Part shown: piece by piece, positions 7,764-28,184 of the stretch
How the letters are laid out: each line of letters opens with the position of its first letter
How positions within the stretch are numbered: position 1 is the stretch's first letter
Assembly (NCBI GenBank): GCA_963692945.1
Contig: OY843585.1
Span: 990,001-1,022,000, forward strand
Direction: 5' to 3'
Source: Bdellovibrionales bacterium
Lineage (GTDB): Bacteria > Bdellovibrionota > Bdellovibrionia > Bdellovibrionales > UBA1609
DNA length: 32,000 bases
The notes under the pieces: generated by a model
Databases searched by the model: none
The model's input: only the letters and a program-made list of their open reading frames with translations
Told to the model about the DNA's origin: nothing
Translations under genes and position numbers: made by a program

Positions 7764-8960
7764 ATGAAGTTAGATTCATTTTATTTTGAGGTTTATTTGA
7801 AGATAGTTATTTATTTTATAGTTTTTTGTTCTTTTTTAGCTCAAGGAGAGAAGAGTCTGGAAATGGATCAAATAAGTCTTGAGCCAGTAACAGAGATAAA
7901 TATTAATACAAGCAAACCGTTTCGTACTTTTTGGAAAACAAATTTTAAAATTAATATTTTTTCAGATCGTTCTACATCTAATTCTGTATTAAGTAATGAA
8001 ATTTATGGAAAGGTGAATTGGGATATTTCAGATAGATTGTCTTTTCACACTCAAAGTTTAATTATTGGAAGAAGTGGATTCACTCAATCTATTTATGATA
8101 GAGCAGATAGAAAGAATGGTTTTTATCTTTTGGATGGTTATTTTGATTGGGAAATCACTCCAGAAATTTTCTTTAAAATTGGAAGTATTAAACAGGATTT
8201 TTTAAAAGCTCCACTTTTTATTACTGATAAAACTTTTCCTAGTTTGGTGCAAAATCTTACGATTCCTTTTTCTGAAAACTCTAAACTTTCTTTTATATTT
8301 CAACAGTCTATTCCAGATAATGCCACTGAAACTGTAAAGCGAGAGACTCAAATTGTAAGGTGGACACCCTTATTTTTAACTTCAACGGCTTTTCTTGATT
8401 TGGATTCTATTTCTTCTTGGGATATATCTTTAGAAGAAAGATTAACAGGTTTTTATTTTACCAATTTGTCAGCAGCTGTTGCTGAATTAGGAAGAATAAG
8501 AGGAAATACAATTGATCTTACTGGTAGTGATTCTCGTTTTAAGTATAAATTTTTAGGATTACATAATAGTATCAATTTAAAAGCTACTTTATTAGAAGAT
8601 TGGGTTGTAGAGTTTGGTGGAGATATTTTATTCAATGTGCTTGCACCAGATACTTTTAATCAAGGTGAAAGGTTTTATATGGCTATCTATCATAACTATA
8701 AAAATTATGCAGAAATTAAAGCCTCTGGTGAATACTTTGCTAATCAATCTGATACTTCTGTGGCTTACTACAATAGTGAAGTTTATGGTCATAACAATAG
8801 AGTTGGAGGTTTGTTAAAATTGCAAACTCACCTTTACAATTCAGGGATTACTATAGGTATGACTTATGTTTATAGCCGACCTATTAATCCAAAACGATCT
8901 TCTATTGGAGTGTCAAATTCTTTTGCTATTTTCTTTGGGACAAATTATGTATCTATTTAA
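7764..8960 (+). CDS. Hypothetical secreted, beta-strand-rich protein (possible outer-membrane beta-barrel), 398 aa
   Basis: ATG ORF with a hydrophobic N-terminus (YLKIVIYFIVFCSFLAQ|GE). It has alternating hydrophobic/polar stretches and an aromatic-rich C-terminus (SFAIFFGTNYVSI). I recognise no family. Its 3' end overlaps the next gene by 14 nt. Confidence 0.6.
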   Translation: MKLDSFYFEVYLKIVIYFIVFCSFLAQGEKSLEMDQISLEPVTEININTSKPFRTFWKTNFKINIFSDRSTSNSVLSNEIYGKVNWDISDRLSFHTQSLIIGRSGFTQSIYDRADRKNGFYLLDGYFDWEITPEIFFKIGSIKQDFLKAPLFITDKTFPSLVQNLTIPFSENSKLSFIFQQSIPDNATETVKRETQIVRWTPLFLTSTAFLDLDSISSWDISLEERLTGFYFTNLSAAVAELGRIRGNTIDLTGSDSRFKYKFLGLHNSINLKATLLEDWVVEFGGDILFNVLAPDTFNQGERFYMAIYHNYKNYAEIKASGEYFANQSDTSVAYYNSEVYGHNNRVGGLLKLQTHLYNSGITIGMTYVYSRPINPKRSSIGVSNSFAIFFGTNYVSI

Positions 8961-11900
8961 TCAAAAAAATATAATCCTAGTTTTAAAATCTCTATTTTGT
9001 TTGACTTTGATTTCTTGTGTAGGAAAAGAGAAACAGATTCTTTCAGACACGGAATACGCTTCAAACGCTCCGTTTATTGTGGAGCAAATCACAAAAGCTG
9101 AAAATTCAGTTAAATCTATTAATTTTATTGAAAAAGATGGATTAAAAAATGCTTTTATTGTGAATCTTTCAACCTGTTTAAAAGATTCTTTTAAAAAGGA
9201 TAACTCTATACAAGAGACCCCTTTTGTTATTGAGTATGAAACCAATTTTGATAATGATGGAAAAACAGGTAAGAGAATAGAAAGAGTAGAAGTTACTTCT
9301 GATGTGAATGGTTGTATCCGATGGGAAGAAGAGTATAAATATAGATATGTTATTAAGCCCAAATGGATTGTCCTTACGAGAAGCATTAAAAAAGAAGAGG
9401 GGGGTTATTCTGGTCAAGTTGAAATTCCTTTGGCTGTAAATCCTTGGTTGAAAAGTAGTAATGAGGAGTTTCCAGAGGTTTTAGATTTAAGAAAAAATTA
9501 TTCTGAAAAATATTCTATCTTTAAGAAACTTCCTTATGAAAAAAAGGGATTAGAGTATTTATCCAGGAATGAAAGTTCAGAGTATCCTCAATTATGGGCT
9601 CCTGAGATAGGTTTACAGATTGAAACACAATTGCCAAAATTATCAGAGGAAAAACGATATCAAAATCCTAAGGAGTTATTAAAAAATTATCAATCCCTTT
9701 GCAATAGTGAACTTAAGGAAAATTGTTACAAACGGCACTTTAAACTCAACTTAACTATTCCTCTTCAATTGCGAACCTATGGGTTACAAAAAGATGTGGT
9801 GGATGAGATTGTCAAAGGAGGGTCTTATCATGTGAAATTACAATTGCTCGCTATTCCTGATATTAATAAGAAGTTTTATCGTATACATGAAAATATTTGT
9901 GCAGAAGATATTCATATTAGTAATTCAGCAGATAATAGTTATAGAGCAAAGAGCATCAATATATCTTGTGATATTCCTATCTCTTATTTTAGCCAACATG
10001 CCAATTATAAAATTGCTGTAGAAATTGATCCAAAAGTAGGTCTTCCTTTTACAAAATTTCAAGGGATTTATACAATCAATTTATCTCAAGAAATTAAAAG
10101 TGGATCTCTTTATACTTATAATATTGATAGCAGTTTAGAAAATGATTATACAAAGATTCCTGTAAAGACTCCAATTATACAAAATAGAAATATTAAATAC
10201 ATTTATGATGCTATTAACAACAATAGAAAAAAGATCTCTCGTGAAGGCGCATCTTTTTCTGAAGATAAACAATTATCTCGTTTAGGATTTCATTCCGTTC
10301 ATTTGGATGTGGAATTAAAAAAAATGACATTTGCTAATGTTGAAAATGATGAAAATTGTTCAAATAATGAATCCGTTGTAAAAAGAAGAGTTAATTTTAT
10401 TGGGAAAGCTTGTATTAAGGATGTGTTGACAGATTATAAAAACAAAGGAATAGCCTTTAGAGTTTTTATAGAAGATGAACAAAATGGACACAAAATAAGA
10501 GAAGTGTTTTCTGATACTACGAAAAGAACAATACCTAAAGCAGATGCAGAAGGGTGTATATCTTGGCCTGATTCTATAGAGCATAAAAACTTTGATAGGC
10601 AAGTTTATATGCCTAGAAAAGTACATTTTTTATCGGAAGAATTAAATTTATATGGAACTGTTGGTGTTGCAGTCACTCCTTGGCAAAGAGCCTTTCAGGC
10701 CTATCAAGATATTTCTCAATTGAGTCGTGATGAGATACGAACAGATACTAAAGGTGTTAAGAAGCCAAAATTGATTGTTAATCAGTTTAAAAGTGTTAAT
10801 TTATTTCCTTCTTATGTATTAGATAAATTTTTAAATATCCATTTATTTCATAGTTTGTATTTCTTATTTCAACCTTTTATATTAAGACATGATAATATTG
10901 CTTTAGGTAGAGAGGGTAGAGCAAGAGAGGTTTTACGAGATGGTTATTATATTTTACGAGTGCTTCTTTTAAGAAACCCTCAGGAGACTGGAGATTTTTC
11001 TCGGGTTGTAAAACCTGAAACTGTTGAGAATGTACGAAAGTCTATCTTGCTTAGAGAACATAATAAAGATAATCAGTATATAGAAGAGATTGCAAAGGGA
11101 GATATTAAAGGGCAATATATCACTCATATTGATACAGTGATTAAGGCAAAAGCCAATTTCGTTAATGTTTATGTTCCTCTTCATTTTACAAAAGAACAGT
11201 TTTTTTATTTGGCCTCAAGAAACTTGATATCTATTCAAGTTATTCCTGTTGATCCTGAAGGATTTAAATTTAAAGAATTGAATGAGCAAAGAGAAATTTG
11301 TGAAATTGATTTTGATAAAACAGAATGGAAACCATTTTTTGATCATGATCTTATTGTGAAACCGTCAGTAGGGGTTTTTCAAATTCAAAACTGGACAAAT
11401 TGGAATATTTTACAACCTATGAATGAAGAAAAATTCAATACGGACATGATTATAGATGCAGATGAAGAAGGTAAGAAATACAGACATTTTACATTATCAC
11501 AAGATTCTTCTAGTGTTGATATAAAGCCAGCAGAGATTGAGCCTAGTGTATTACAGCAAGGATATAATGATTGTGTAGGTGAGGAATCAGATGGGGAGAA
11601 ATTTAATATTGAATCTTGTCATCCTTCTAAAGTTACAGATAAGAGTGAAATTACTATTGAGGGATACTATCAAGAAAAAGTTGAGAAAATTATATTAGAA
11701 AAAGCAAAAACAGTGAAAAAAGATATTAGTTCGGAAGATCTTATAGATAGTTTTGCTGAAATAAATGCCTTAAAAGTTGTTAATTTAGGAGAAGAAAGTG
11801 GGAATAAATTTTTAAAAAATTTAAAATATTCTCATAATGAAACTTATCTTTTGGATGAGAATGGTACTATTAATTACAAAATTTTGGATTTTATTTCTAA

Positions 11901-13950
11901 TAAAAAAATAAAAAAAGAAATGGAACAAAAAATTGAGAAAGATTGTGAGATGTCATCTCTAACATCTTTTCTTTTAAAATACATGATCACTGAAGCTTTA
12001 AAAACCTGTATGAGTGAATCTATAGAGGGTTACCTTGTTGATTGGATAAATCAGCAAAGTGAAGATAAAGATGTCCAGCATGAAAAATTTAGAGATTTTC
12101 TAGATGAACAAGTCAGTGATTCTGAAATTACACATACATTCAAATGGATTATGCAGAAGCAGGAATTGCCTAATGCATTATCTTCTTTGTTATTAGATAG
12201 AGTCTCTCTCTCTTTAGAAACCGTTATTGATAAAGGTGTTACTGATAAATATCAAAAAGAGATAGAAACCTTAACTTTTGGAAAATCTTTATGTGGATTT
12301 TGGTTTAAATCTTTTTTTGAAAAATATTTAACATCTCAACAAATGAGAACAGTTTATACAGATTATATTAAAAAATTTGATTATTATAAAGTTTTAGAAA
12401 ATGAGAGTTTACTTGATACTGAAAAAGGTGATTTTCTTATTAGTTTTATGAAAATGCTTTCTGATGGAGAGACGATGGGGGAAAGAGATCTAAAAAAATG
12501 TCATCTCAATTATAGTCAATGTGTTTTTTTAGATCATTGTAAGTTAAGGGATCATACTCGTCATTCAAAATCTTATTGTAATAAAGTCTCAGGGTTAGAA
12601 GATTTAAGTTGTTTAAAAGTTGTAAAAGAAGAATGTAAAAAAAATCCATCCACTTCTATTTGTCAAAAAAATATAGAACCTAACAGGTGTCATTACTCTT
12701 TAAATCATTTTTGTGGAATCAATTCCAGTCATAGTATGTGTCAGAGATACTACTCAAGATGTTTAACAGAATATTATTCTTGTACAGATATTCCTACAAT
12801 TAGAAAAGATTTTGAAAAATCTAAAAATGAGATAGAGTTATTTCGTATGCAACCTAGTCAATCTTTATTGGATGCCTATTTTGATTTTAAATTTTATAAG
12901 TCTAAAAATGTTAAATCTCCTCTATTAGAGAGTTGTTTAGAAAATCCATTTCGTTTTTTTCAATTAGAATCTAAAATGTTCATTGAGAAAATATCTGATG
13001 ATTCAGCTACTTATGTGGGAGGGTTTTCAGGGAATCTTGTGGTGAGTGGAAGTTTTTCTACAGGTTCCTATATGAATTGGACTTCCCAAAGAGGCTCTTC
13101 TTTAGGTTTGAAACATGGGACGAGTCTTGGTTTTGGATTACTTGGTTCAAATATTACAGCCATGGAAGTGAGTCTTTCTAAAAATGTTTCTTCTAATATC
13201 TCTAATAGTGGTCGTAGAGCTATAGATATAAGGGTTGGTGAAGGAGCTTTTTTAGTTATTTCTAGAGCCACATTTGATATTAATGTTACTAAATTTAAAA
13301 AATGTTTAGTTATAAAACCAAATCCACAGGCTTTTTTTGGTAAACTTGTAGATGGAATATGGGAACCTTTTGACGATGATGTTTGGAATGATGATTTTAC
13401 AAGAAACTCTTATAAAAAAATTCTTATATCTCGTCCAGGATTGATGATTTGTAGTCCAAAAAAAGAGCTGGATGAGAGTGATCCTGAAACAATAAGAGAA
13501 AATTACTATTACATTTCTCAATCTATGGTTGATCCTAGTAACTCTCAATTTTTGAATTTATATGATTTAGCAAATAGACCTTTTATGGCTGTTTTAAGAG
13601 GGCGAAGAGAGTTTCTGAATTTCTTTAATGGAATGAAAATAGTTATGGAAGGAAAGTCAGGAGATGTTGATAAAAATGCTCTTCATAATACTTTACCATC
13701 TAATATGTTTGGTGAATATCCTCATCCTGTTGAAGAAGCTTTATCTTTGAGTCTTGCTAGAAGAGAGTTTGGAAAGACAGGATTTTATCCAGGAGTTTTT
13801 ACTTATGCTTACTCTAGAGACAATTTCAATCGTGAGTTAACAAAAGATAGTGCTTGGATGAGTAAATTGTTTAAATCCTATGAAAGTATCAATTATGGAT
13901 TACCTTTAGTTACACCTTCTGAAAATAAAATACCTACAATTTCTTATTGA
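8947..13950 (+). CDS. Giant lipoprotein of unknown function (1667 aa from ATG 8947)
   Basis: Uninterrupted 5-kb frame. The internal ATG at 8947 gives MYLFNQKNIILVLKSLFCLTLISCVGKEKQ, a signal peptide with lipobox L-I-S-C. The track start at 8866 would lie inside the upstream gene. It contains a 12-Cys cluster (CHLNYSQCVFLDHC...YYSC, about 12490-12790). No recognisable domain. Confidence 0.75.
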   Translation: MYLFNQKNIILVLKSLFCLTLISCVGKEKQILSDTEYASNAPFIVEQITKAENSVKSINFIEKDGLKNAFIVNLSTCLKDSFKKDNSIQETPFVIEYETNFDNDGKTGKRIERVEVTSDVNGCIRWEEEYKYRYVIKPKWIVLTRSIKKEEGGYSGQVEIPLAVNPWLKSSNEEFPEVLDLRKNYSEKYSIFKKLPYEKKGLEYLSRNESSEYPQLWAPEIGLQIETQLPKLSEEKRYQNPKELLKNYQSLCNSELKENCYKRHFKLNLTIPLQLRTYGLQKDVVDEIVKGGSYHVKLQLLAIPDINKKFYRIHENICAEDIHISNSADNSYRAKSINISCDIPISYFSQHANYKIAVEIDPKVGLPFTKFQGIYTINLSQEIKSGSLYTYNIDSSLENDYTKIPVKTPIIQNRNIKYIYDAINNNRKKISREGASFSEDKQLSRLGFHSVHLDVELKKMTFANVENDENCSNNESVVKRRVNFIGKACIKDVLTDYKNKGIAFRVFIEDEQNGHKIREVFSDTTKRTIPKADAEGCISWPDSIEHKNFDRQVYMPRKVHFLSEELNLYGTVGVAVTPWQRAFQAYQDISQLSRDEIRTDTKGVKKPKLIVNQFKSVNLFPSYVLDKFLNIHLFHSLYFLFQPFILRHDNIALGREGRAREVLRDGYYILRVLLLRNPQETGDFSRVVKPETVENVRKSILLREHNKDNQYIEEIAKGDIKGQYITHIDTVIKAKANFVNVYVPLHFTKEQFFYLASRNLISIQVIPVDPEGFKFKELNEQREICEIDFDKTEWKPFFDHDLIVKPSVGVFQIQNWTNWNILQPMNEEKFNTDMIIDADEEGKKYRHFTLSQDSSSVDIKPAEIEPSVLQQGYNDCVGEESDGEKFNIESCHPSKVTDKSEITIEGYYQEKVEKIILEKAKTVKKDISSEDLIDSFAEINALKVVNLGEESGNKFLKNLKYSHNETYLLDENGTINYKILDFISNKKIKKEMEQKIEKDCEMSSLTSFLLKYMITEALKTCMSESIEGYLVDWINQQSEDKDVQHEKFRDFLDEQVSDSEITHTFKWIMQKQELPNALSSLLLDRVSLSLETVIDKGVTDKYQKEIETLTFGKSLCGFWFKSFFEKYLTSQQMRTVYTDYIKKFDYYKVLENESLLDTEKGDFLISFMKMLSDGETMGERDLKKCHLNYSQCVFLDHCKLRDHTRHSKSYCNKVSGLEDLSCLKVVKEECKKNPSTSICQKNIEPNRCHYSLNHFCGINSSHSMCQRYYSRCLTEYYSCTDIPTIRKDFEKSKNEIELFRMQPSQSLLDAYFDFKFYKSKNVKSPLLESCLENPFRFFQLESKMFIEKISDDSATYVGGFSGNLVVSGSFSTGSYMNWTSQRGSSLGLKHGTSLGFGLLGSNITAMEVSLSKNVSSNISNSGRRAIDIRVGEGAFLVISRATFDINVTKFKKCLVIKPNPQAFFGKLVDGIWEPFDDDVWNDDFTRNSYKKILISRPGLMICSPKKELDESDPETIRENYYYISQSMVDPSNSQFLNLYDLANRPFMAVLRGRREFLNFFNGMKIVMEGKSGDVDKNALHNTLPSNMFGEYPHPVEEALSLSLARREFGKTGFYPGVFTYAYSRDNFNRELTKDSAWMSKLFKSYESINYGLPLVTPSENKIPTISY

Positions 13951-14481: not shown

Positions 14482-14813
14482 AATCCCTCCTTTTTTGTAG
14501 GATTTTATTTTTGAATAATAATAGTGTTTTTATTGTAGGAAATAGTTTTTCTATTTGTCTAAAAAAAACTATGGAGCAATATGTCTTTTATGAAAAAAGC
14601 ATAGCACAGGACTTATTTTAGAGAAAACACGATAAATAGAGGATTTTAAGTTAGCCTATATGAAAAAGACTGAAATAACAGAAGAGATTTGACTTTAGGA
14701 GCAGGGAATACAGGGCATAAAATCTGTGTAAGATTTTATGTGATAGAAGTAAGGACTTTATTTGCCAAGATGTATTAAGTTAGTTTAAAAGCATATTAGT
14801 TTAAGCATTTTAT

Positions 14814-14871
14814 GCGGGTGTAGCTCAGCTGGCTAGAGCGCAACCTTCCCAAGCTTGAGTTGTGGGTTCGA
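14814..14871 (+). pseudogene. Truncated tRNA-Gly-like remnant (anticodon position CCC)
   Basis: gcgggtgtagctcagctggctagagcgcaaccttcccaagcttgagttgtgggttcga matches the first ~59 nt of the intact tRNA. There is a C-C mismatch in the anticodon stem. The 3' T-stem and acceptor strand are replaced by unrelated sequence. Confidence 0.75.
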
Positions 14872-15027
14872 TTTTTGTGTTCAAGTTGTCCCTGTGTAGC
14901 CTGCGACTTTAGGAGCAGGGAATACAGGGCATAAAATCTGTGTAAGATTTTATGTGATAGAAGTAAGGACTTTATTTGCCAAGATGTATTAAGTTAGTTT
15001 AAAAGCATATTAGTTTAATTATTTTAT

Positions 15028-15085
15028 GCGGGTGTAGCTCAGCTGGCTAGAGCGCAACCTTGCCAAGCTTGAGTTGTGGGTTCGA
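15028..15085 (+). pseudogene. Truncated tRNA-Gly-like remnant (anticodon position GCC)
   Basis: Same as the 14814 copy but with ttgccaa in the anticodon loop. The 3' T-stem and acceptor strand are missing. Confidence 0.75.
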
Positions 15086-15241
15086 TTTTTATGTTCAAGT
15101 GTTCCCTGTGTGGCCTGCGACTTTAGGAGCAGGGAATACAGGGCATAAAATCTGTGTAAGATTTTATGTGATAGAAGTAAGGACTTTATTTGCCAAGATG
15201 TATTAAGTTAGTTTAAAAGCATATTAGTTTAATTATTTTAT

Positions 15242-15299
15242 GCGGGTGTAGCTCAGCTGGCTAGAGCGCAACCTTGCCAAGCTTGAGTTGTGGGTTCGA
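15242..15299 (+). pseudogene. Truncated tRNA-Gly-like remnant (anticodon position GCC)
   Basis: Same as the 15028 copy. The 3' T-stem and acceptor strand are missing. Confidence 0.75.
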
Positions 15300-15453
15300 T
15301 TTTTGCGTTAAAGTTCCCTGTGTTGGCTGCGACTTTAGGAGCAGGGAATACAGGGCATAAAATCTGTGTAAGATTTTATGTGATAGAAGTAAGGACTTTA
15401 TTTGCCAAGATGTATTAAGTTAGTTTAAAAGCATATTAGTTTAATTATTTTAT

Positions 15454-15530
15454 GCGGGTGTAGCTCAGCTGGCTAGAGCGCAACCTTGCCAAGGTTGAGG
15501 TCGTGGGTTCGAATCCCATCACCCGCTCCA
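15454..15530 (+). tRNA. tRNA-Gly (anticodon GCC), CCA encoded
   Basis: Hand-folded cloverleaf: acceptor GCGGGTG/CACCCGC, D arm GCTC-AGCTGGCTA-GAGC, anticodon arm CAACC-TTGCCAA-GGTTG, T arm GTGGG-TTCGAAT-CCCAT, discriminator T, CCA. Confidence 0.95.
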
Positions 15531-15548
15531 TTTTGAGCAATAGATTTT

Positions 15549-15569
15549 TGATAGGAGCATTTCCTATCA
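15549..15569. terminator. Hairpin between tRNA-Gly and the convergent DarT-macro gene (weak terminator candidate)
   Basis: tgatagga-gcatt-tcctatca forms an 8-bp stem. Only a short T-run (atttc) follows on the + strand. Confidence 0.35.
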
Positions 15570-15624
15570 TTTCAAAATAAATTGCTTCTTAAATAACCAT
15601 CATCTCTAAAAAATTAATCTGATG

Positions 15625-16797
15625 CTATGTTGTTTTTAATAGAAACTCTGAACTCAAATGCTCTTCTTGAATCTGATATTCATTAGGTAAGTAAACATAG
15701 CTTTGTATATCCATCTTATCAAGGTGTTGGCACATTAAAGGACCTACATCTTTCCAGTGTAATTTTCCTAAGCCACATCCTAACGCTGGAAGAGCTATGG
15801 ATTCAATTTTTTTATCTTTATAATTATCTACTAGCCACTGTAATCCTTTTTTAATTCCGTCAATAGGAGAGGATTCTTTCCAGTGATTTTTTGTAGGAAA
15901 TAAAAGAAACCAACGGTGGCCATTTTCTGTAATAGTTGCATTTGAATTCTCCATAAGTGTCATTTCAAAATTTTCATTTCTTTTATAAAGAACAGGTGTT
16001 CCCATTTTTAATGTTTTATTTCTGCACAAATCTTGATAATGAACATAGACATCAGGAAATTGATATTTTGATCTCGAAGCTAAGCCTTTCCCCATAACAC
16101 CAACCGTATTAACACTAATGGTAAATGTTTGCATATCAGAAAAAAACATATCTCCTTTTACCAAAGTAATGTTTTTTGAAATTTTCTTTTGATAATCAGG
16201 AAGAAAAAACATTCTGGGGGAGGGGATAACATTTATAGGACCTATAAACTCTTTTTTAATTTCTTTTGATATTTTATCATTGGCAGTATAAATCGCTACA
16301 ATATATTCTTTTGGTATTTTTTCTGGCACTAAAAGTTCAGCCATAATTTTTCGTTTAGAATCGTCTGAATTATTCCAGTAATCTTTTTGAAATTGATCTT
16401 TGGTTATTTTTTGTAATCCATTATCTATATCTTCAAAAAATTCTGTGTCTGAAGATGCAGCATTTCCATCTGTAATGCCAGCATTTTCTATTTCAATGAT
16501 TTTAGGATCAACTTGTATAACAATAATATTTTCTTCTTTGTGTTTTCGAATCACAGAATATAACATAGGGTTTCTGACTTCAAAGTAAAGATTAGCATAA
16601 TTCCATAAAGATCGTTCTCTAAATTTTTTATTTTTTCTTATTTTAATGATGTCTTTGTTGTGAATGGATTCAAATTTGATTTTTTTAAAAAAATTGAATA
16701 TACTAGCTTTTTGAGATCGTGCAAATATACCATTTTCTAAAATAGATTTCAGATTTTTTCTGTGTGTAATATAATAAAATTGTTTTGGCCTTTTCAT
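15625..16797 (-). CDS. Fused DarT-like ADP-ribosyltransferase (DUF4433) and DarG/TARG1-like macrodomain, single 390-aa polypeptide
   Basis: The N-terminal half has DarT hallmarks from memory: FYYITHRKNLKSIL (YHITH..NL), LWNYANLYFEVRNPMLYSV (DYVPFYF.PRSPMLY), DYWNN...KRKIMAELLV (catalytic-Glu motif QAEFLV). The C-terminal half is a macrodomain: VNTVGVMGKGLA, FPTKNHWKESS (the TK..HW motif of DarG/TARG1), ALPALGCGLG. Confidence 0.85.
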   Translation of the reverse strand: MKRPKQFYYITHRKNLKSILENGIFARSQKASIFNFFKKIKFESIHNKDIIKIRKNKKFRERSLWNYANLYFEVRNPMLYSVIRKHKEENIIVIQVDPKIIEIENAGITDGNAASSDTEFFEDIDNGLQKITKDQFQKDYWNNSDDSKRKIMAELLVPEKIPKEYIVAIYTANDKISKEIKKEFIGPINVIPSPRMFFLPDYQKKISKNITLVKGDMFFSDMQTFTISVNTVGVMGKGLASRSKYQFPDVYVHYQDLCRNKTLKMGTPVLYKRNENFEMTLMENSNATITENGHRWFLLFPTKNHWKESSPIDGIKKGLQWLVDNYKDKKIESIALPALGCGLGKLHWKDVGPLMCQHLDKMDIQSYVYLPNEYQIQEEHLSSEFLLKTT

Positions 16798-17053
16798 GAT
16801 ATCAATGCTCTTTAATAATTAATGTAATATGTTTTTTTATGCAACCATTCCAAAACCGAATACCCTTTATAAAGCTCTTCTATGGCTAAATCCTCATAAA
16901 ATTTCACCATAGAAGCTGTAGGCTTAGGAAACTCAGCATCTTCAATATTATCAATAATATTCCCTTTTCAATGAAGCAAAATGAACTATGGGGCATTGCA
17001 TAAAAATAAAAAAAAACCTAATGTTTTCAATGCTTATAAGGGAAAAAGGTTCA

Positions 17054-17065
17054 CCCCCCCCCCCC
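17054..17065. repeat. Poly-C homopolymer (12 C) in a divergent intergenic region
   Basis: ggttca-cccccccccccc-gattttt, about 70 nt upstream of ATG 17136 and about 260 nt upstream of the DarT-macro start. It stands out in a roughly 30% GC sequence. Confidence 0.9.
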
Positions 17066-17135
17066 GATTTTTCGTTTGATTTTTTTAATAACTATGTACA
17101 AAATCTGATTTAGATCTTTAAAAAAGGAGAGAGTT

Positions 17136-17780
17136 ATGAAATTTATGTATAGTTTAAAAATTTTTATTTTATCTGTTTTTATATTGCCTCATTTTTTTGT
17201 TTATGGAAACAGTGATGAATCTAAAGAAATTGAAACATTTAATGTAGTAAAGGAACGGATTTATCAAACACTAAAGTATGGTGATGTAAAAGAATTTGAG
17301 AAAGTGATAAGTGAGAACTCAGACTTGCTTTCTAAAGATCATATAAAACTTTTGTTACAAGAGTTTGTAGAGAGTGACGAGTTTTTAAAATTAACTATTG
17401 ATGACAGAGCAAATTCTCCTACAGGTAGGGGTCTCTATACTACAACAGCAAATGCTATAGCAGCTTTTTATGGTATAGGAGCTTTCGCAGTTGTTAGCAC
17501 TGTATTTAGTCCTTATATTGATTTTGAAGGTTTTTTAGGAATGTCAGGATATTTAGCGGATCTTTCAGAAGTAGGTGTTCTAGTTATGCTAACCTTGGTA
17601 CCAATATACAACAATTCATCACTACATACATTCCTCAAAAGAGCATTTATAGATAGAAATGTTTTACCAAAGCTATCATCAGATATAGAAAGGATATCAC
17701 ATATAAATCAGTTTAAAAAAGTAAAAGATTTTTACAAAGACAAAAGACAAAAATGTAAAGCCGTTTTTTCTTCGTCTTAA
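17136..17780 (+). CDS. Hypothetical exported/membrane protein (214 aa)
   Basis: ATG preceded by AAGGAGAGAG. Signal peptide MKFMYSLKIFILSVFILPHFFVYG|NS. Two central hydrophobic helices (AIAAFYGIGAFAVVSTVF, VGVLVMLTLVPIY). C-terminus is ...KRQKCKAVFSSS. Confidence 0.7.
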   Translation: MKFMYSLKIFILSVFILPHFFVYGNSDESKEIETFNVVKERIYQTLKYGDVKEFEKVISENSDLLSKDHIKLLLQEFVESDEFLKLTIDDRANSPTGRGLYTTTANAIAAFYGIGAFAVVSTVFSPYIDFEGFLGMSGYLADLSEVGVLVMLTLVPIYNNSSLHTFLKRAFIDRNVLPKLSSDIERISHINQFKKVKDFYKDKRQKCKAVFSSS

Positions 17781-17802
17781 TGATTTACTTTTTTTTAGTA
17801 CT

Positions 17803-18109
17803 CAATATTTGTTAAAGTGAATTTTTTTGTTCCAGCTAATAAAGGTTCCATTACATTGCGAACAACTTTTTGAGGGCTTATATCTTCATACCCATGAAGT
17901 CGTCCACATTGAAAGCAAATAGATTGTCCTGTTTCACGGTGAACAAAGTACCGATAGAGTCCTTGATGAGTGTTTGCTGTTGGCATTGTTAAACCCGGCA
18001 CATCAGCAAAAGAAATAGAAAATCTCTCTTCCCAAATATGAGAGAGTTTTTTCCTAAACTATCTAAAGCTTGGCTGATACCTAAAACAAAATGTCTTTCT
18101 GGAGATTGA
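17803..18109 (-). pseudogene. Internal fragment of the purine nucleoside phosphorylase gene (duplicate of 19803-20116)
   Basis: About 307 nt aligns by eye with 19803-20116, with scattered substitutions, a 1-nt deletion (ttttttcctaaac vs ttttttccctaaac) and a 6-nt deletion. The track ORF 17795..18001 is the open part of this fragment. Confidence 0.85.
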
Positions 18110-19296: not shown

Positions 19297-20322
19297 TTAG
19301 TGAGTATTAAATTCTTTATTACAGAAACATAAAAAACCTTGAAGCATTTTTTCACTATGTATTTTAACATGCTTTAACATGTCTTCATCTTTTATTTCTG
19401 AACCTTTTAAGCCACTTCCAGGGTTAGAGATCATAGAAAAACCTGTTACTTCGGCTCCAGCATGTTTTAAAGCAATGGCTTCCCAAACTGTGGACATACC
19501 TACAACATCTAATCCCCATTGAGCAAAAAGTTTTATTTCTGCTGGAGTTTCTAAATTAGGACCAGGAACGCAAATATAAGTTCCTTCTTGGACATGAACT
19601 CCTGCCATTTGAAGTTCATTTATAATTTTATTTCGTGTGTTCTCACTGTAAATTTTTTCCATATGTGGGAATCGATCTCCTAAAGGTTCTCCATTATGAT
19701 CAGTGGGGTTGGGTCCAGTTAGAGGACTTTTTCCTGTAAAATTAACATGATCTTTTAAAGCAATGATAGTTCCTATAGAAAGGTCTGATCTTAATCCTCC
19801 TCCAATATTTGTTAAAGTGAATTTTTTTGTCCCAGCTAATAAAGGTTCCATCACATTGCGAACAACTTTTTGAGGACTTATATCTTCATACCCATGAAGT
19901 CGTCCACATTGAAAACAAATAGATTTTTCTGTTTCACGGTGAACAAAGTATCGGTAGAGTCCTTGATGAGTGTTTGCTGTTGGCATTGTTAAGCCCGGCA
20001 CATCAGAAAAAGAAATAGAAAATCTTTCTTCCCAAATATGAGAGAGTTTTTTCCCTAAACTATCTAAAGCTTGGCTGATACCTGAACCTAAAACAAAATG
20101 TCTTTCTGGAGATTGAATTTTATGTTTTTTATATTGTTCTTTTAAAAAATCTGCACCTGTTTGTGATGTAAAGGAATTTTTACATGTATTTGGAATTCTA
20201 TCTATAGGTTTTGCATTTACAAATGTTGAAAAAGAAATAAAACTAAGAATGCAATATAAATAAAAAAAATTTATCTTAAGCCTTTTTATTCTTTTGAAAA
20301 ATTCTATTATTGGTTTTATCAT
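19297..20322 (-). CDS. punA: Purine nucleoside phosphorylase (trimeric PunA/PNP family) with an N-terminal export leader
   Basis: Family motifs: VLGSGIS, GRLHGYED, TNIGGGL, GPNLETPAE, VGMSTVWE. About 50 extra N-terminal residues with a hydrophobic core, then ...STFVNA|KPIDRIPNTCKNSFTSQ. Confidence 0.88.
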   Translation of the reverse strand: MIKPIIEFFKRIKRLKINFFYLYCILSFISFSTFVNAKPIDRIPNTCKNSFTSQTGADFLKEQYKKHKIQSPERHFVLGSGISQALDSLGKKLSHIWEERFSISFSDVPGLTMPTANTHQGLYRYFVHRETEKSICFQCGRLHGYEDISPQKVVRNVMEPLLAGTKKFTLTNIGGGLRSDLSIGTIIALKDHVNFTGKSPLTGPNPTDHNGEPLGDRFPHMEKIYSENTRNKIINELQMAGVHVQEGTYICVPGPNLETPAEIKLFAQWGLDVVGMSTVWEAIALKHAGAEVTGFSMISNPGSGLKGSEIKDEDMLKHVKIHSEKMLQGFLCFCNKEFNTH

Positions 20323-24276: not shown

Positions 24277-26823
24277 TTACTTTTTCTTAAGGAATTTATT
24301 GTTGTACTGATCAATGATTTCTGCATCATCTGGTGCTGCTTCATTATCCGTTAGTTGGGCTGTCGGAGCAGGTTGTAGAGATAGAGGGAAAAATCCATTT
24401 TCCGGATCTTGTTTCCATGCTGATCCTGCTATGGCTTCATAGAGAATAAGTTGAGCATTTCCAGTATCTGAGTCAACCAATGCAATCCCTGATTGCCAGC
24501 TACTATAACCTCCTTCAGTATAAGCAACGGATTTATAAGTAGAGGTTCCCACATTTACAGTTCCTCCTAAGATACTTGGTTGATGAGAATCTCCTATTAC
24601 ACTTTGTTCAACCGCTTTTGCATGGGAAGGCATTCCTCCCTTAGCTCCGTTTGCTCCTTTATGTCCATGGAAGTGTAAGTACACTGGATTGTGTTGAGGA
24701 CCTACAATAAAAGGTTCACCAGTTTGTAGAACTTTTACTCGGTTTGGATCTACAATATAAAGATTACTTTTCATTTTTTTATGCTGAAGTTTAGGTTCTA
24801 AACCATCATGAAGTGTTTTTCTATGGTGGTTAAACATATATTCAAAAACATTTACATTTAAATGAGATCTAGCAAAAAGCAATTCAATAAGAAATTCTCT
24901 GTTAGGCATATCTTTTATAGCATCGGGATTGTCTAAAAGATTTTCTATCCAATAATGATGATTACTATCAACAAGTACAATATTTAAATCAGGAAATTTT
25001 TGTAAAAATCCATTCATAGTTTGTATAAGACCTTCTATCTCATCTTTTATATTCAATTCTCCTCTTTTGTATTTCTCTAATTTTGAATTTAATTTATGAG
25101 ATTCATGATGATTATGAGAACTCCCGTCAAGAGCATCATGAAGAACTAAAGTTTTAATATTGTGGGTTCTCATAATGTCTTCATGCACTTTTAAAAGAAG
25201 TTGATTGGCATTATAATCATGGAGATCTCCAGTAACCATAGTGTCTATGTTTCTTTTTATTATTTTGTCATTAGTGTATAAATGATTTAAATCTATAAAA
25301 CCAGGTATCTGATTTTGTTCAACAGAAGGGTCTTGTTTTGAATTGCCAAGATATTTTATAGGACGAACATAGAAAAACCCTGGAAGTCCCCCTTGATTTG
25401 GTCCAGATTTTTTATCAGCTAATTCAAGGATTAAGGCTCCCATAGCATGACGATTTTTTGCTAATTCACTCACTCTCAAAGAGGCTGGATTTTTAGAAGG
25501 GTAGAGGGGAGTTGTAATAGATCCAGGAGCCCATAAACCATGAGTGATATCTTTATTATCTGCTGTAGCGACAGTTTGATAGCGTTGCTGAGGACTACCT
25601 ATAATCTGAATTTGACCTCTTTTTCCCTGACTATAAGTATCTAGAGAAGCAAAAGGATTTGCATTTTTAGGCATGACAGGAAGAGCCCAGATTCTTAAAT
25701 AATCACTAAAGTTTATAGTGTGAGTCACAATACGTACTTTATCTGGCATACTCAAAAGATAAGGATCAATTCCATCTGTTTGTCCATTAACAGGAAGAAG
25801 TATAATAGGGACTTTTTTTCGTGTTGCATATTTTAACAAGCTTTCAAAAAAGTCTCTGTTTGTTGGAATTCCTGCTGTTACAGTAGAAACAATAGCTCCT
25901 TTGGCTTGCAAAACCATATCTGCTGTTTGTTGATCCGATTCTAGACTAAATTGATTGGTGTCAATGTAGTTGAGAAAAGCAGAAGGAGTTAATTTTTTTG
26001 CTAGCATTTCTACTTCCTCCATTCCATTTTCAAAAAGAACAGGAATATGTGCTTCTGATTTTTTATTAAGAGAAACCTTATTTCCTAACATAACACTCAG
26101 GTGAAGTTCTTTTTTTAAATATTTTGGTAAAATGTTGTTGTCTTCATCATGTTTTTCTACATACACCTGATAAAGTCTTTTGATGTCTGGGGTTTTGTTT
26201 TTCCATTTTATGTCATCACTTTTTATAGAAGCTATAAAAGCTTTTGCTATACTTTTTTTTAATTTTGTAATGTATGTTGGATTTTCTTCTTTGACTTGAT
26301 TCCAAAATATCATTGGAATAGAATCACCAATCAGTTCTTCTAATTTTTGTTTCGGCATTTTTAAAAATAAAGATATATCTCTAATACGAGGTATAACTAA
26401 AGTTTTACTAACCATAGTTAATATAGCTAGTTCAGCTTTTTTTAAAATATTTTGTGAAGTAAGGGTTTTATCAGCAGTCAAAAGGGCTGCTGAACGTAAA
26501 GCGGCTTGCTGTAGGTTTATTTTTGCGGTTGCATTTTCTTTTGATGCAGGAGGTGTTGTATCTTTTGCATCTTTTGCGGTTGCATTTTCTTTTGATGCAG
26601 GAGGTGTTTTATCTTTTGCATCTTTTGCATTTGCATCTTCTTTTGATGCAGGAGGTGTTTTATCTTTTGCATCTTTTGCGGTTGCATCTTCTTTTGATGT
26701 AGGAGGTGTTTTATCTTTTGCATCTTTTGCATCTTCTTTACTAAAAGTGTCTTTACATTTCTTATTTTCTGCATAGGAGGGAAAAGCCAATAATATAAGA
26801 ATTAAAACTAAAGTTTCTTTCAT
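24277..26823 (-). CDS. Secreted 848-aa protein with a 17-aa tandem-repeat linker and a C-terminal calcineurin-like metallophosphoesterase motif set
   Basis: Signal peptide MKETLVLILILLAFPSYA|ENKKCKDTF. About 4 copies of KDAKDKTPPASKEDA.A. The C-terminal third carries an ordered motif series: VTGDLHD, LHDALDG, VDSNHHYW, HFHGHKG, IGDSHQP (compare DxH, GDxxD, GNHE, GH, GHxH). The start ATG overlaps the upstream stop (ATGA). Confidence 0.8.
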   Translation of the reverse strand: MKETLVLILILLAFPSYAENKKCKDTFSKEDAKDAKDKTPPTSKEDATAKDAKDKTPPASKEDANAKDAKDKTPPASKENATAKDAKDTTPPASKENATAKINLQQAALRSAALLTADKTLTSQNILKKAELAILTMVSKTLVIPRIRDISLFLKMPKQKLEELIGDSIPMIFWNQVKEENPTYITKLKKSIAKAFIASIKSDDIKWKNKTPDIKRLYQVYVEKHDEDNNILPKYLKKELHLSVMLGNKVSLNKKSEAHIPVLFENGMEEVEMLAKKLTPSAFLNYIDTNQFSLESDQQTADMVLQAKGAIVSTVTAGIPTNRDFFESLLKYATRKKVPIILLPVNGQTDGIDPYLLSMPDKVRIVTHTINFSDYLRIWALPVMPKNANPFASLDTYSQGKRGQIQIIGSPQQRYQTVATADNKDITHGLWAPGSITTPLYPSKNPASLRVSELAKNRHAMGALILELADKKSGPNQGGLPGFFYVRPIKYLGNSKQDPSVEQNQIPGFIDLNHLYTNDKIIKRNIDTMVTGDLHDYNANQLLLKVHEDIMRTHNIKTLVLHDALDGSSHNHHESHKLNSKLEKYKRGELNIKDEIEGLIQTMNGFLQKFPDLNIVLVDSNHHYWIENLLDNPDAIKDMPNREFLIELLFARSHLNVNVFEYMFNHHRKTLHDGLEPKLQHKKMKSNLYIVDPNRVKVLQTGEPFIVGPQHNPVYLHFHGHKGANGAKGGMPSHAKAVEQSVIGDSHQPSILGGTVNVGTSTYKSVAYTEGGYSSWQSGIALVDSDTGNAQLILYEAIAGSAWKQDPENGFFPLSLQPAPTAQLTDNEAAPDDAEIIDQYNNKFLKKK
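26521..26733 (-). repeat. Coding 51-nt tandem repeat (about 4 copies)
   Basis: ttttgcggttgcat(c/t)ttcttttgatgcaggaggtgtt(t/g)tatcttttgcatc is repeated. It encodes the K/D/A/P/T-rich linker at residues 31-101. Confidence 0.9.
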
Positions 26824-28184
26824 GATGCTTTGCCTGTGAAAGTATTCTTACAATTTTTTTCATTTGTTTCATTTTCATCAGCTGGTTTAAAATTTTCAGT
26901 ATTAACTAACATTTTTCCAGTTTTATTATTATCTGTTTCTTTATTGTTAGCTTGAGAAGGGTTGTTTGATTCCTTTGTTGGTTTTGTGCTTTTAGGTGCT
27001 TCCTTATCAGCCTTTTTTTTAGCAATTTTTTTATTATTGTTTTTATATATTGAAGAGATACTCCTAGTTTGACTGGTTTGTAAATATTTTATATTGAAAC
27101 GATTGATGTTTTTTGGATGCATGTTTAATTCTTCTATTAATTCTACATCTGTTATAGGTCTAAAAAAACCATTATTAAAAACAAGAATACGATAACCATC
27201 AAAAGTTTTATCATCTTCTATATACTTATCTCGTCCAGCATGAATAAATACAAATTTTATTTTGTGCCTATATAAATTTTCTTGAGAGGATTTTTGTACT
27301 TTTTTAAAAAGTGCATCGGCGTATTCAGGATGGTCTTCAGCTACAATCATAAGATGTTTGTTCTCTCTTTCTCCTTGGATAGATTTTTGTTTTTCAACAT
27401 GAATAAAGCCTTTTCCTTTATTTCTGATAGGTTTAAGAGAAAGCTGTTTAACTTCTATATCAATAGCTCCTACTTTTTTATCAAGCAAGGTTCGTCCATA
27501 TGTACGACTATCTACTGAACTTAAAGCATGAAGTCTGAATTGGTGAGAAATTTGGGTTAAATGGTCGTTTTTTAAAAGAGTCTCAAAGAACTGATCAAAA
27601 TTAGCATGGTTTTGTGCTCTTGCTGTATGTATGGCTAAGTCTCCTTTTAACGGATTTTTCATGAGCCAAGATGCGATATCATAGGTTAAACCATAAAAGT
27701 TCTTATTAGTTTTTTGCTTTTTTTGCCTGTCAAAAGCTAATAATAAATCTTCAACGAGATAATTTTTATTTTCATGAAATCTAAATCTGTCATAAGAGGT
27801 GGATTCATTTATTGTATAATAACCAGGGATAATGGTTAGAGGGCGATCTTTAAAAAGAAAATCCTCTTTTAGTTTAACTTCTTCCAAAGTTTTAATTTTT
27901 CCCGCTAAGCCTAAAAGATGTTCCATTTGATGAAATTCTTCAATAGTGATTGGGAAGGAGGAAGGTATTTTTTCATGTATTTCTGTGTATTGAATTGCAC
28001 TGTGTAAAGATTCTATTTTTTCTAGTATGTAGTAAGGTTGCCAAGGACTGTTAATCTCAGACATAAGCGTTCCATCAAAATCAGTAACAAGAACAGTATG
28101 ACCAGCGTACCCATCTCCTTTTTTACCAGCAATAGCTAATGGAATAAGGGTTACAATAAATAAAAAAATAGTTGTTCTAAACAT
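26820..28184 (-). CDS. Secreted 454-aa protein with an N-terminal HAD-type DxDxT motif (putative phosphatase/nucleotidase) and a low-complexity C-terminal tail
   Basis: Signal peptide MFRTTIFLFIVTLIPLAIA|GKK. VLVTDFDGTLM is a textbook HAD motif I. Later motifs are only tentatively placed (IHTAR, VAEDHPEYAD). The K/N/E-rich tail ends ...NEKNCKNTFTGKAS. Confidence 0.75.
   Translation of the reverse strand: MFRTTIFLFIVTLIPLAIAGKKGDGYAGHTVLVTDFDGTLMSEINSPWQPYYILEKIESLHSAIQYTEIHEKIPSSFPITIEEFHQMEHLLGLAGKIKTLEEVKLKEDFLFKDRPLTIIPGYYTINESTSYDRFRFHENKNYLVEDLLLAFDRQKKQKTNKNFYGLTYDIASWLMKNPLKGDLAIHTARAQNHANFDQFFETLLKNDHLTQISHQFRLHALSSVDSRTYGRTLLDKKVGAIDIEVKQLSLKPIRNKGKGFIHVEKQKSIQGERENKHLMIVAEDHPEYADALFKKVQKSSQENLYRHKIKFVFIHAGRDKYIEDDKTFDGYRILVFNNGFFRPITDVELIEELNMHPKNINRFNIKYLQTSQTRSISSIYKNNNKKIAKKKADKEAPKSTKPTKESNNPSQANNKETDNNKTGKMLVNTENFKPADENETNEKNCKNTFTGKAS

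Follow-up and report, generated by a model that had tools for sequence, protein, structure and literature searches.

DarTG1 and DarTG2 both protect against phage (PMC11543638, PMC13069673), and in these two papers, which refer to LeRoux 2022, canonical two-gene DarTG appears as an established anti-phage system. In the guanine-specific toxin DarT1 the base-coordinating residue is an asparagine, N104, and the DarG-type macrodomain of the canonical systems is inactive on guanine-ADP-ribose (PMC11543638). For DarG of Thermus aquaticus (TaqDarG), the macrodomain residues N22, K29, K80 and G119 were found to matter experimentally, and the macrodomain alone rescues cells from DarT, for which K80 is needed (PMC5179494). 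Toxin and antitoxin can also be joined in one polypeptide, as in CapRel(SJ46), a fused anti-phage sensor that is auto-inhibited and is freed by direct binding of a phage protein (PMC9712102). Here we describe a gene from a 32,000-nucleotide stretch of a Bdellovibrionales bacterium (contig OY843585.1, positions 990,001 to 1,022,000; hereafter the window), whose single product carries a DarT domain followed by a DarG-type macrodomain.

We interpret this protein as a single-chain DarTG, of the type known from Thermosipho africanus, that neutralises itself and takes part in conflict with phages or mobile elements, at a rough probability of 0.6. Its identity as a fused DarTG is close to certain, while a role in defence seems somewhat better than an even bet. 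The first-pass annotation of this DNA had described a DarT toxin and a DarG-type macrodomain in one polypeptide with the toxin first, and this layout was borne out by Pfam, PADLOC and NCBIfam matches and by the alignment to a solved structure. The Pfam DarT family (PF14487) covers aa 8-198 over its entire profile (1-201 of 201; E 2.4e-40, 138.8 bits against a cut-off of 22.5), PADLOC DarT covers aa 3-184 (E 1.1e-37), and Pfam Macro matches aa 297-352 (E 8.9e-8). PADLOC DarG (aa 210-378, E 7.7e-47) and NCBIfam antitoxin_DarG (aa 210-379) are matched over their N-terminal halves only (profile positions 2-152 of 329 and 1-156 of 338, respectively), and the chain stops 11 residues past the macrodomain, so that the protein lacks the C-terminal half of DarG, which binds DarT, as had been claimed. 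Scores against the NCBIfam equivalog profiles fall below their cut-offs, with 149.7 bits against 250 for antitoxin_DarG and 98 bits against 150 for toxin_DarT. The gene is not part of a canonical two-gene DarTG operon: it is one open reading frame (ORF), and no separate DarT or DarG is encoded nearby. The motifs quoted in the first-pass annotation (YYITH, NLYFEVRNPMLYS, AELLV, GVMGKGLA, FPTKNHWK and GCGLG) are all found in the translation.

The structure that carries this assignment is PDB 7OMU (chain 7omu_AAA, 406 aa), released on 2021-06-23 under the title "Thermosipho africanus DarTG in complex with ADP-ribose", which aligns colinearly with aa 3-388 of the query at E 8.5e-111. The entry was reportedly deposited with Schuller et al. 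2021 (Nature 596:597). At the MAELLV of the query, the chain in the crystal has MAACLV, which means that its catalytic Glu was mutated for crystallisation. A structure prediction had been proposed in the first-pass annotation and was run: the AlphaFold2 model, built from an alignment of 118 sequences, reached a mean predicted local distance difference test score (pLDDT) of 90.3 and a predicted template modelling score (pTM) of 0.86, with a pLDDT of ~95 across the linker region. Foldseek superposed the model on 7OMU over both domains (template modelling (TM) scores 0.90/0.93, root-mean-square deviation 2.3 A, 392 columns, 46% identity), followed in rank by the isolated DarG macrodomains of T. 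aquaticus and Mycobacterium tuberculosis, DarT2 of Thermus and M. tuberculosis, TARG1 and Escherichia coli DarT1. In the model, the domains and their mutual orientation agree with 7OMU, and the protein is predicted to form one rigid two-domain body. The T. africanus protein and the query share the order of DarT and macrodomain, the length class (406 and 390 residues), a short linker with an FF(F)LP motif and the lack of the DarG C-terminal domain. They differ in sequence, being only 46% identical, and in lineage; the host of the query is an AT-rich bacterium encoding ankyrin-repeat proteins.

Conservation was scored in the alignment of the 118 homologues. Residues R54, E154, K303, G236 and G238 and the run G340-C341-G342-L343-G344 are invariant, while H12, M78 (within the NPMLY motif of the DarT domain), N112, the residues of the N230 region and K237 are at least 90% conserved; at the C-terminus of the DarT domain F197-F198 are invariant and P200 nearly so. 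Alignment to the DarT crystal chains, with a chain-index offset of +1 that was consistent for both markers in each, places E154 at the position mutated as E160A in Thermus DarT2 (7omv) and as E152A in E. coli DarT1 (8baq). By sequence, R54 is probably the equivalent of R51/R52, from which it is displaced by 2-3 residues in the pairwise alignment. In the catalytic set of DarT enzymes, the Glu is the ADP-ribosyltransferase (ART) glutamate, the Arg abstracts a proton, the Met stabilises the oxocarbenium, and a further residue coordinates the base. In the macrodomain, N22, K29, K80 and G119 of TaqDarG (5m31) align with N230, K237, K303 and G342 of the fusion, respectively. The same catalytic residues are kept in divergent family members from Thermotogota, Aquificaceae, Poribacteria, Bdellovibrionales and a Bathyarchaeota metagenome-assembled genome (MAG). 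Comparison with the 97%-identical relative P0001 gave a ratio of non-synonymous to synonymous substitution rates (dN/dS) of 0.26 (10 synonymous and 11 non-synonymous changes), and seven of the 11 replacements fall within aa 28-62, a variable loop that is also the sole low-confidence part of the AlphaFold model. Both catalytic sets, which had looked intact in the first-pass annotation, are so, with their residues invariant or almost invariant in the 118 homologues and under purifying selection. Decay of the active sites was considered and is ruled out by the conservation of the catalytic residues, including that in divergent members, and by the dN/dS value.

The fusion is widespread. Among 5.8 billion protein clusters, 2489 matched at E <= 1e-5, and the best 120 of these, all with the architecture of the query, are ~385-430 aa long, with a few shorter and apparently truncated, at 49-97% identity to the query. 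In precomputed annotation, most of the 120 carry both Pfam domains, whereas for three of them DarT alone is given; many come from independently assembled contigs of 1.5-3 Mb. In a GTDB set with one genome per species, at least 579 stretches encode a relative. Among the best 80 of these, which were examined, full-length fusions occur in Bdellovibrionales, 'Ca. Poriferihabitaceae', Acidobacteriota, Desulfobacteraceae, Chloroflexota, Planctomycetota, Poribacteria, Cyanobacteria, Nitrospirota, WOR-3, Armatimonadota, Thermotogota, Aquificaceae and one Bathyarchaeota MAG, and the fusion family is present in more than 12 phyla. The closest homologue among these 80 belongs to a Bdellovibrionales MAG (59% identity), and L070-L080, which match at ~30% identity, represent the canonical arrangement with separate DarT and DarG genes. 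A library clustered at 50% identity gave 7413 matches at E <= 1e-3, of which 70 reached E <= 1e-30, about 30 of them full-length fusions; longer DarT-Macro fusions of 440-610 aa also exist, with ~60-180 aa between the Pfam matches. Since the fused architecture is known, structurally solved and widespread, the query is a further member of its family and opens no new category. The novelty implied in the first-pass annotation is accordingly not upheld, given a structure from 2021 and hundreds of species-representative genomes with the same architecture.

The first-pass annotation had also proposed a survey of the fusions and their neighbourhoods. This survey recovered full-length fusions widely, with neighbourhoods that are mostly of a housekeeping type and with defence islands in close relatives. 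The closest relatives (59-65% identity) lie in islands of defence or mobile genes whose positions are not syntenic, and the distribution of the gene is of an accessory, mobile kind. The neighbours comprise an integrase, an HSDR_N/ResIII/SWI2_SNF2 helicase, transposases, AbiEii and DUF4007 in L082; the same helicase, a 286-aa RxxxxH (HEPN-like) protein, AbiEii, Abi_C and an N6 methyltransferase in L084; Dnd-like genes and a YafQ/HTH toxin-antitoxin pair in L085; a methyltransferase-HNH protein and a Gp49/HTH toxin-antitoxin pair in L083; and AbiEi in L001. To look for a partner gene, every ORF of 70 aa or more lying up to 4 kb from the fusion gene was included in a clustering across 80 loci. 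No conserved partner emerged, in line with the earlier statement that a separate partner gene is lacking, and the shared neighbours reflect synteny within lineages, mainly Poribacteria. Nor did Pfam and PADLOC reveal a recurrent family among the genes next to the fusion (62 upstream and 66 downstream), save for AAA ATPases in a few cases and stand-alone DarT in four.

Two of these relatives, at 64-65% identity, deserve a separate remark. In L082 (4822-9464) and L084 (3604-8588) the fusion gene stands third in a common same-strand cassette, in the order HSDR_N/ResIII/SWI2_SNF2 helicase, ~286-aa RxxxxH protein (split in L082), DarT-macro and HsdM-like ORF, the last of which resembles, by eye, an N-terminal HsdM fragment. 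The cassette is reminiscent of DarHTG, a helicase-associated variant described in 2026, whose helicase is UvrD-like (PMC13069673).

The single-chain organisation suggests how such a protein could work. The N-terminal DarT domain would move ADP-ribose from NAD+ to a base of single-stranded DNA (ssDNA), and the DarG-type macrodomain, rigidly joined by an 11-residue linker, would hydrolyse the mark. As the C-terminal DarT-binding domain of DarG is missing, self-protection probably operates through enzymatic reversal by the tethered macrodomain. Neutralisation would be type IV-like at a fixed 1:1 stoichiometry, and intramolecular restraint of the DarT domain may contribute; the rescue by the TaqDarG macrodomain alone makes macrodomain-only neutralisation plausible. 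The tethered macrodomain would keep erasing the DarT product from host ssDNA. During infection or invasion, modification could come to exceed erasure, or a foreign or phage factor could tip the balance as a trigger, and replication of the invader would be blocked. The established anti-phage action of canonical DarTG and the presence of orphan DarG-like macrodomains in phages both speak for such a role.

Several observations weigh against this interpretation. A covalent 1:1 toxin-antitoxin cannot use the classical release by differential stability, and no trigger is evident. The question of how a stoichiometrically locked toxin is ever released, raised in the first-pass annotation, is legitimate. 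In the open literature searched we found no answer to it, no paper that deals with the natural fusion, no described biological role for the 7OMU protein or the query, and no experiments on the query or on the function of any natural fusion. No defence genes neighbour the fusion in the window, and in 69 phylogenetically diverse loci it is mostly housekeeping genes that adjoin the fusion, with only a handful matching defence families (type I and III restriction-modification components, AbiEi and MADS proteins). Finally, plasmid and phage collections contained no close homologue of the fusion, the best full-length matches being 29-33% identical; they yielded canonical two-gene DarT and macrodomain pairs (~32% identity), orphan phage macrodomains and one phage-like contig.

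Two single-piece matches from these collections may be recorded in their own right. One, on an unannotated 7.5-kb 'Bacteriophage sp.' contig, spans 98% of the fusion at 29% identity. The other, a tblastn match at 77024-78109 of plasmid AP029160.1 (Pigmentibacter ruber), spans 95% of the query at 31% identity and is annotated as darT plus a macrodomain protein; the plasmid is 140 kb long and comes from a Silvanigrellaceae bacterium from human.

An alternative that we consider unlikely, yet worth keeping in sight, is a housekeeping or regulatory function, in which reversible ADP-ribosylation of host ssDNA, for example at origins or forks, tunes replication, growth or dormancy. A host-regulatory role of this kind has been proposed for the chromosomal DarTG of M. 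tuberculosis. Most of the distant family members do lie among housekeeping genes, the fusion is widely retained in small genomes (~1.5-3 Mb), and purifying selection acts on both activities, all of which would suit a host function. Such a function is harder to reconcile with non-syntenic positions even among relatives of 60-65% identity, in defence or mobile contexts, with the variability of the chromosomal islet that holds the gene in the lineage of the query, and with a patchy spread over phyla that is typical of horizontally moving accessory genes.

It is improbable, in our estimate, that the protein runs an ssDNA-dependent futile cycle of NAD+, with net conversion of NAD+ to ADP-ribose and nicotinamide, in which phage ssDNA would turn the fusion into an NAD+-depleting effector. 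An equally improbable corollary is an outcome comparable to that of Sir2- or TIR-based defences. The idea draws on the two active sites being intact and covalently coupled in a rigid body, from which the cycling itself would be deduced. It conflicts with the toxicity of canonical DarT, which has been ascribed to the DNA adduct itself (PMC5179494), and DarT turnover may be too slow for bulk depletion of NAD+.

Still less probable is that the protein acts mainly as an eraser or immunity factor, whose DarT domain only targets it to ssDNA, or binds or mimics another DarT, while the macrodomain cleans up the marks of a separate or foreign DarT. In its favour, stand-alone DarT genes lie directly upstream of the fusion in several Poribacteria genomes, orphan related macrodomains occur without a nearby DarT (L062, L068 and L069), and phages use orphan DarG-like macrodomains. 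Against this, the catalytic residues of DarT show little or no variation throughout the family, the query included, which is unexpected for a purely structural domain, and the window contains no second DarT. The phage macrodomains are encoded in 246 phage records and are 32-33% identical to aa ~171-370 of the fusion; they are presumably anti-DarTG factors. The orphan genes in the three loci named are 48-55% identical to the macrodomain half of the fusion, and no DarT-like sequence was found within these loci of ~10-13 kb. In the Poribacteria MAGs, the stand-alone DarT is encoded on the same strand as the fusion and has intact H, R and E residues, with Ile or Leu at the position equivalent to Asn112. 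This tandem arrangement suggests that the Poribacteria fusion may serve as an antitoxin for the free DarT paralogue. A frameshift or assembly merge of darT and darG, or a decayed remnant, two possibilities raised by the first-pass annotation, can be dismissed with near certainty, as neither fits the continuous ORF, the 385-410 aa architecture common to the best 120 homologue clusters from independent assemblies, the 7OMU structure, the conserved catalytic residues or the dN/dS of 0.26.

The target base of the protein is of interest. Residue N112, on which the first-pass annotation was silent, aligns with the base-coordinating residue of known toxins: thymine-specific DarT2 has His119 there, and guanine-specific DarT1 has Asn104. 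The fusion thus shares with DarTG1 (DarT1-NADAR) an Asn at this position, inside an NAAS motif, but its eraser is a macrodomain and that of DarTG1 is NADAR. The extra catalytic Asp of DarT1 (R52-x-D54) is not conserved in the fusion (R54-K55-N56), its guanine contacts K74 and Y75 are likewise replaced (S81-V82), and the RNPMLY motif of the fusion is DarT2-like, not DarT1-like. With canonical DarTG2 (T. aquaticus, M. tuberculosis and enteropathogenic E. coli (EPEC)) the fusion shares the DarT fold with its catalytic Glu, Arg and Met, and a DarG-type macrodomain with a TARG1-like catalytic Lys and equivalents of N22, K29 and G119; in Foldseek, its DarT domain is nearer to DarT2 (TMt 0.72-0.79) than to DarT1 (0.63). 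It differs from DarTG2 in being one gene and not two, in lacking the C-terminal DarT-binding domain, and in having Asn in place of the base-coordinating His119 of DarT2. With a DarT1-like Asn, DarT2-like features and a DarG-type eraser in the same chain, base specificity is not readable from sequence.

CapRel(SJ46) likewise holds its toxin and antitoxin in a single polypeptide (PMC9712102), but its folds and its chemistry (tRNA pyrophosphorylation) are unrelated, and its antitoxin domain is a non-enzymatic sensor, whereas the 'antitoxin' of the fusion is an enzyme that would reverse the product of the toxin. It is a long shot that the compact DarT-macro fusions form a third DarT subfamily with a chemistry or logic of its own, an idea that draws on the pairing of a DarT1-like N112, in its NAAS motif, with a macrodomain of the DarG type. 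If they did, this would mean a new target base or atom together with a co-evolved macrodomain able to reverse the modification or, alternatively, an ssDNA-triggered, cis-coupled NAD+ consumer or a single-chain sensor triggered directly by phage.

The fusions make two questions testable: how a fixed 1:1 toxin-antitoxin stays harmless and then acts without a degradable antitoxin or a binding domain, and which base is targeted by a clade in which the Asn is DarT1-like and the eraser of DarT2 type. With its single gene, such a module for reversible ADP-ribosylation of DNA would also lend itself, as a minimal system, to biochemical work and to the genome-editing tools based on DarT that are in development (PMC13368585).

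Table 1. Coordinates of the fusion gene, its parts and surroundings in the window, and of related features in other loci and records.
Feature	Position	Strand	Remarks
DarT-macrodomain fusion, complete ORF	15625..16797	minus	390 aa plus stop; ATG start; no internal stop
DarT (DUF4433) ADP-ribosyltransferase domain, aa 8-198	16204..16776	minus	Pfam PF14487; contains H12, R54, M78, N112, E154
Codon of catalytic Glu E154	16336-16338	minus	in DarT domain
Interdomain linker, aa 199-209 (11 aa)	16171..16203	minus	limits from Pfam/PADLOC/NCBIfam domain matches
DarG/TARG1-type macrodomain, aa 210-379	15661..16170	minus	PADLOC and NCBIfam DarG; contains N230, K237, K303, G342
Codon of catalytic Lys K303	15889-15891	minus	in macrodomain
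Intact tRNA-Gly(GCC)	15454..15530	plus	ARAGORN; Rfam tRNA 71 bits
214-bp tandem repeat	14691-15512	plus	TRF; 3.8 copies, 97% matches
Small variable islet between tRNA-Gly and deoC/PNP operon	15531..17804		comparison with 97% relative L081
214-aa gene of unknown function	17136..17780	plus	in islet
Bro-N gene of L081, between tRNA-Gly and fusion stop codon	L081 11424-12284		matches window site 15559-15596
Extra 233-aa ORF of L081, adjoining the 214-aa gene	L081 8185-8886		matches window site ~17804
Stand-alone DarT genes	L052 5223-5876; L058 5236-5874; L060 3699-4331; L067 5209-5880		Poribacteria MAGs
Orphan macrodomain genes	L062 5142-5687; L068 6022-6582; L069 6022-6582		
Phage records with macrodomain matches (examples)	EU330206.1 (phiEco32) 34836-35345; MT837167.1 810-1916		

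In the window, the fusion gene and the intact tRNA-Gly are convergent, with the stop codon of the fusion 94 nt from the tRNA 3' end (Table 1). The adjacency to tRNA-Gly reported in the first-pass annotation is real, but its placement of the gene 'downstream' needs correction, as the gene is encoded on the minus strand and runs towards the tRNA. The description of the site as a repeated tRNA-Gly locus was correct as to the repeat; the tRNA itself is intact in the last copy alone. Each 214-bp unit consists of ~120 bp of upstream sequence and the first ~59 nt of tRNA-Gly, up to GGTTCGA of the T-arm, after which the copies diverge, and alignment of the units shows that units 1-3 are pseudo-tRNAs with the 5' part only. 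Two of the earlier copies (15035-15092 and 15249-15306) score 21-22 bits against an Rfam gathering score of 29. The unit junctions hold an imperfect palindrome (CCCTGT..CCTGC / GCAGG..ACAGGG), and the repeat is also found in the 97% relative L081. Repeated integration and excision at the T-loop and unequal recombination are both possible origins. Neither an integrase in the islet nor an att-like repeat of the tRNA 3' end in the window was found, and closeness to a tRNA is not a family trait: among 60 related loci, only L081 has a close tRNA. In L001, a tRNA-Lys lies ~4.7 kb from the fusion gene.

The segment between the tRNA and the deoC/PNP operon is 95.8% identical to its counterpart in L081, with flanks at 98.3-98.9%, and L081 carries two extra insertions of ~1.1 kb relative to the window, one with the Bro-N gene and the other with the 233-aa ORF (Table 1), neither of which is present in the window; together these differences mark the segment as a small variable islet. 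Beyond it follows a cluster of deoC, PNP, pyrimidine-nucleoside-phosphorylase and phosphomutase genes. A small frame upstream of the fusion (16812-16967, minus; 32-51 aa) was considered as a hidden antitoxin and rejected: it is conserved in the 97% relative only and shows no relation to the short frames that precede the fusion in L083 and L085. A scan for promoters and terminators gave no signal above chance.

Some further features of the islet were recorded. Just beyond deoC, at its inner edge, a 68-aa ORF (17795-18001, minus) duplicates an internal part of the purine nucleoside phosphorylase (PNP) gene at 19297-20322 (minus); the duplicate shows ~94-96% DNA identity to the copies of the relative and ~95% identity at the protein level, and L081 shares the duplication. 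A tract of 12 C at 17054-17065, where L081 has 13, lies in the intergenic region from which the fusion (ATG at 16797, minus) and the 214-aa gene (17136, plus) diverge. This difference could reflect phase variation or a homopolymer sequencing error.

Elsewhere in the window, which has a GC content of ~31%, two ankyrin-repeat proteins are encoded on the minus strand, of 300 aa (2338-3240) and 275 aa (5208-6035), with E values of ~1e-66 to 1e-80. Bacterial ankyrin-repeat proteins are typical of host-associated or intracellular lifestyles. Four ORFs are without a Pfam match at E <= 1e-3, namely 8866-13950 (plus), 24277-26823 (minus), 26820-28184 (minus) and 7764-8960 (plus), encoding 1694, 848, 454 and 398 aa, respectively. 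The 1694-aa protein has a hydrophobic N-terminal segment and a Cys-rich region.

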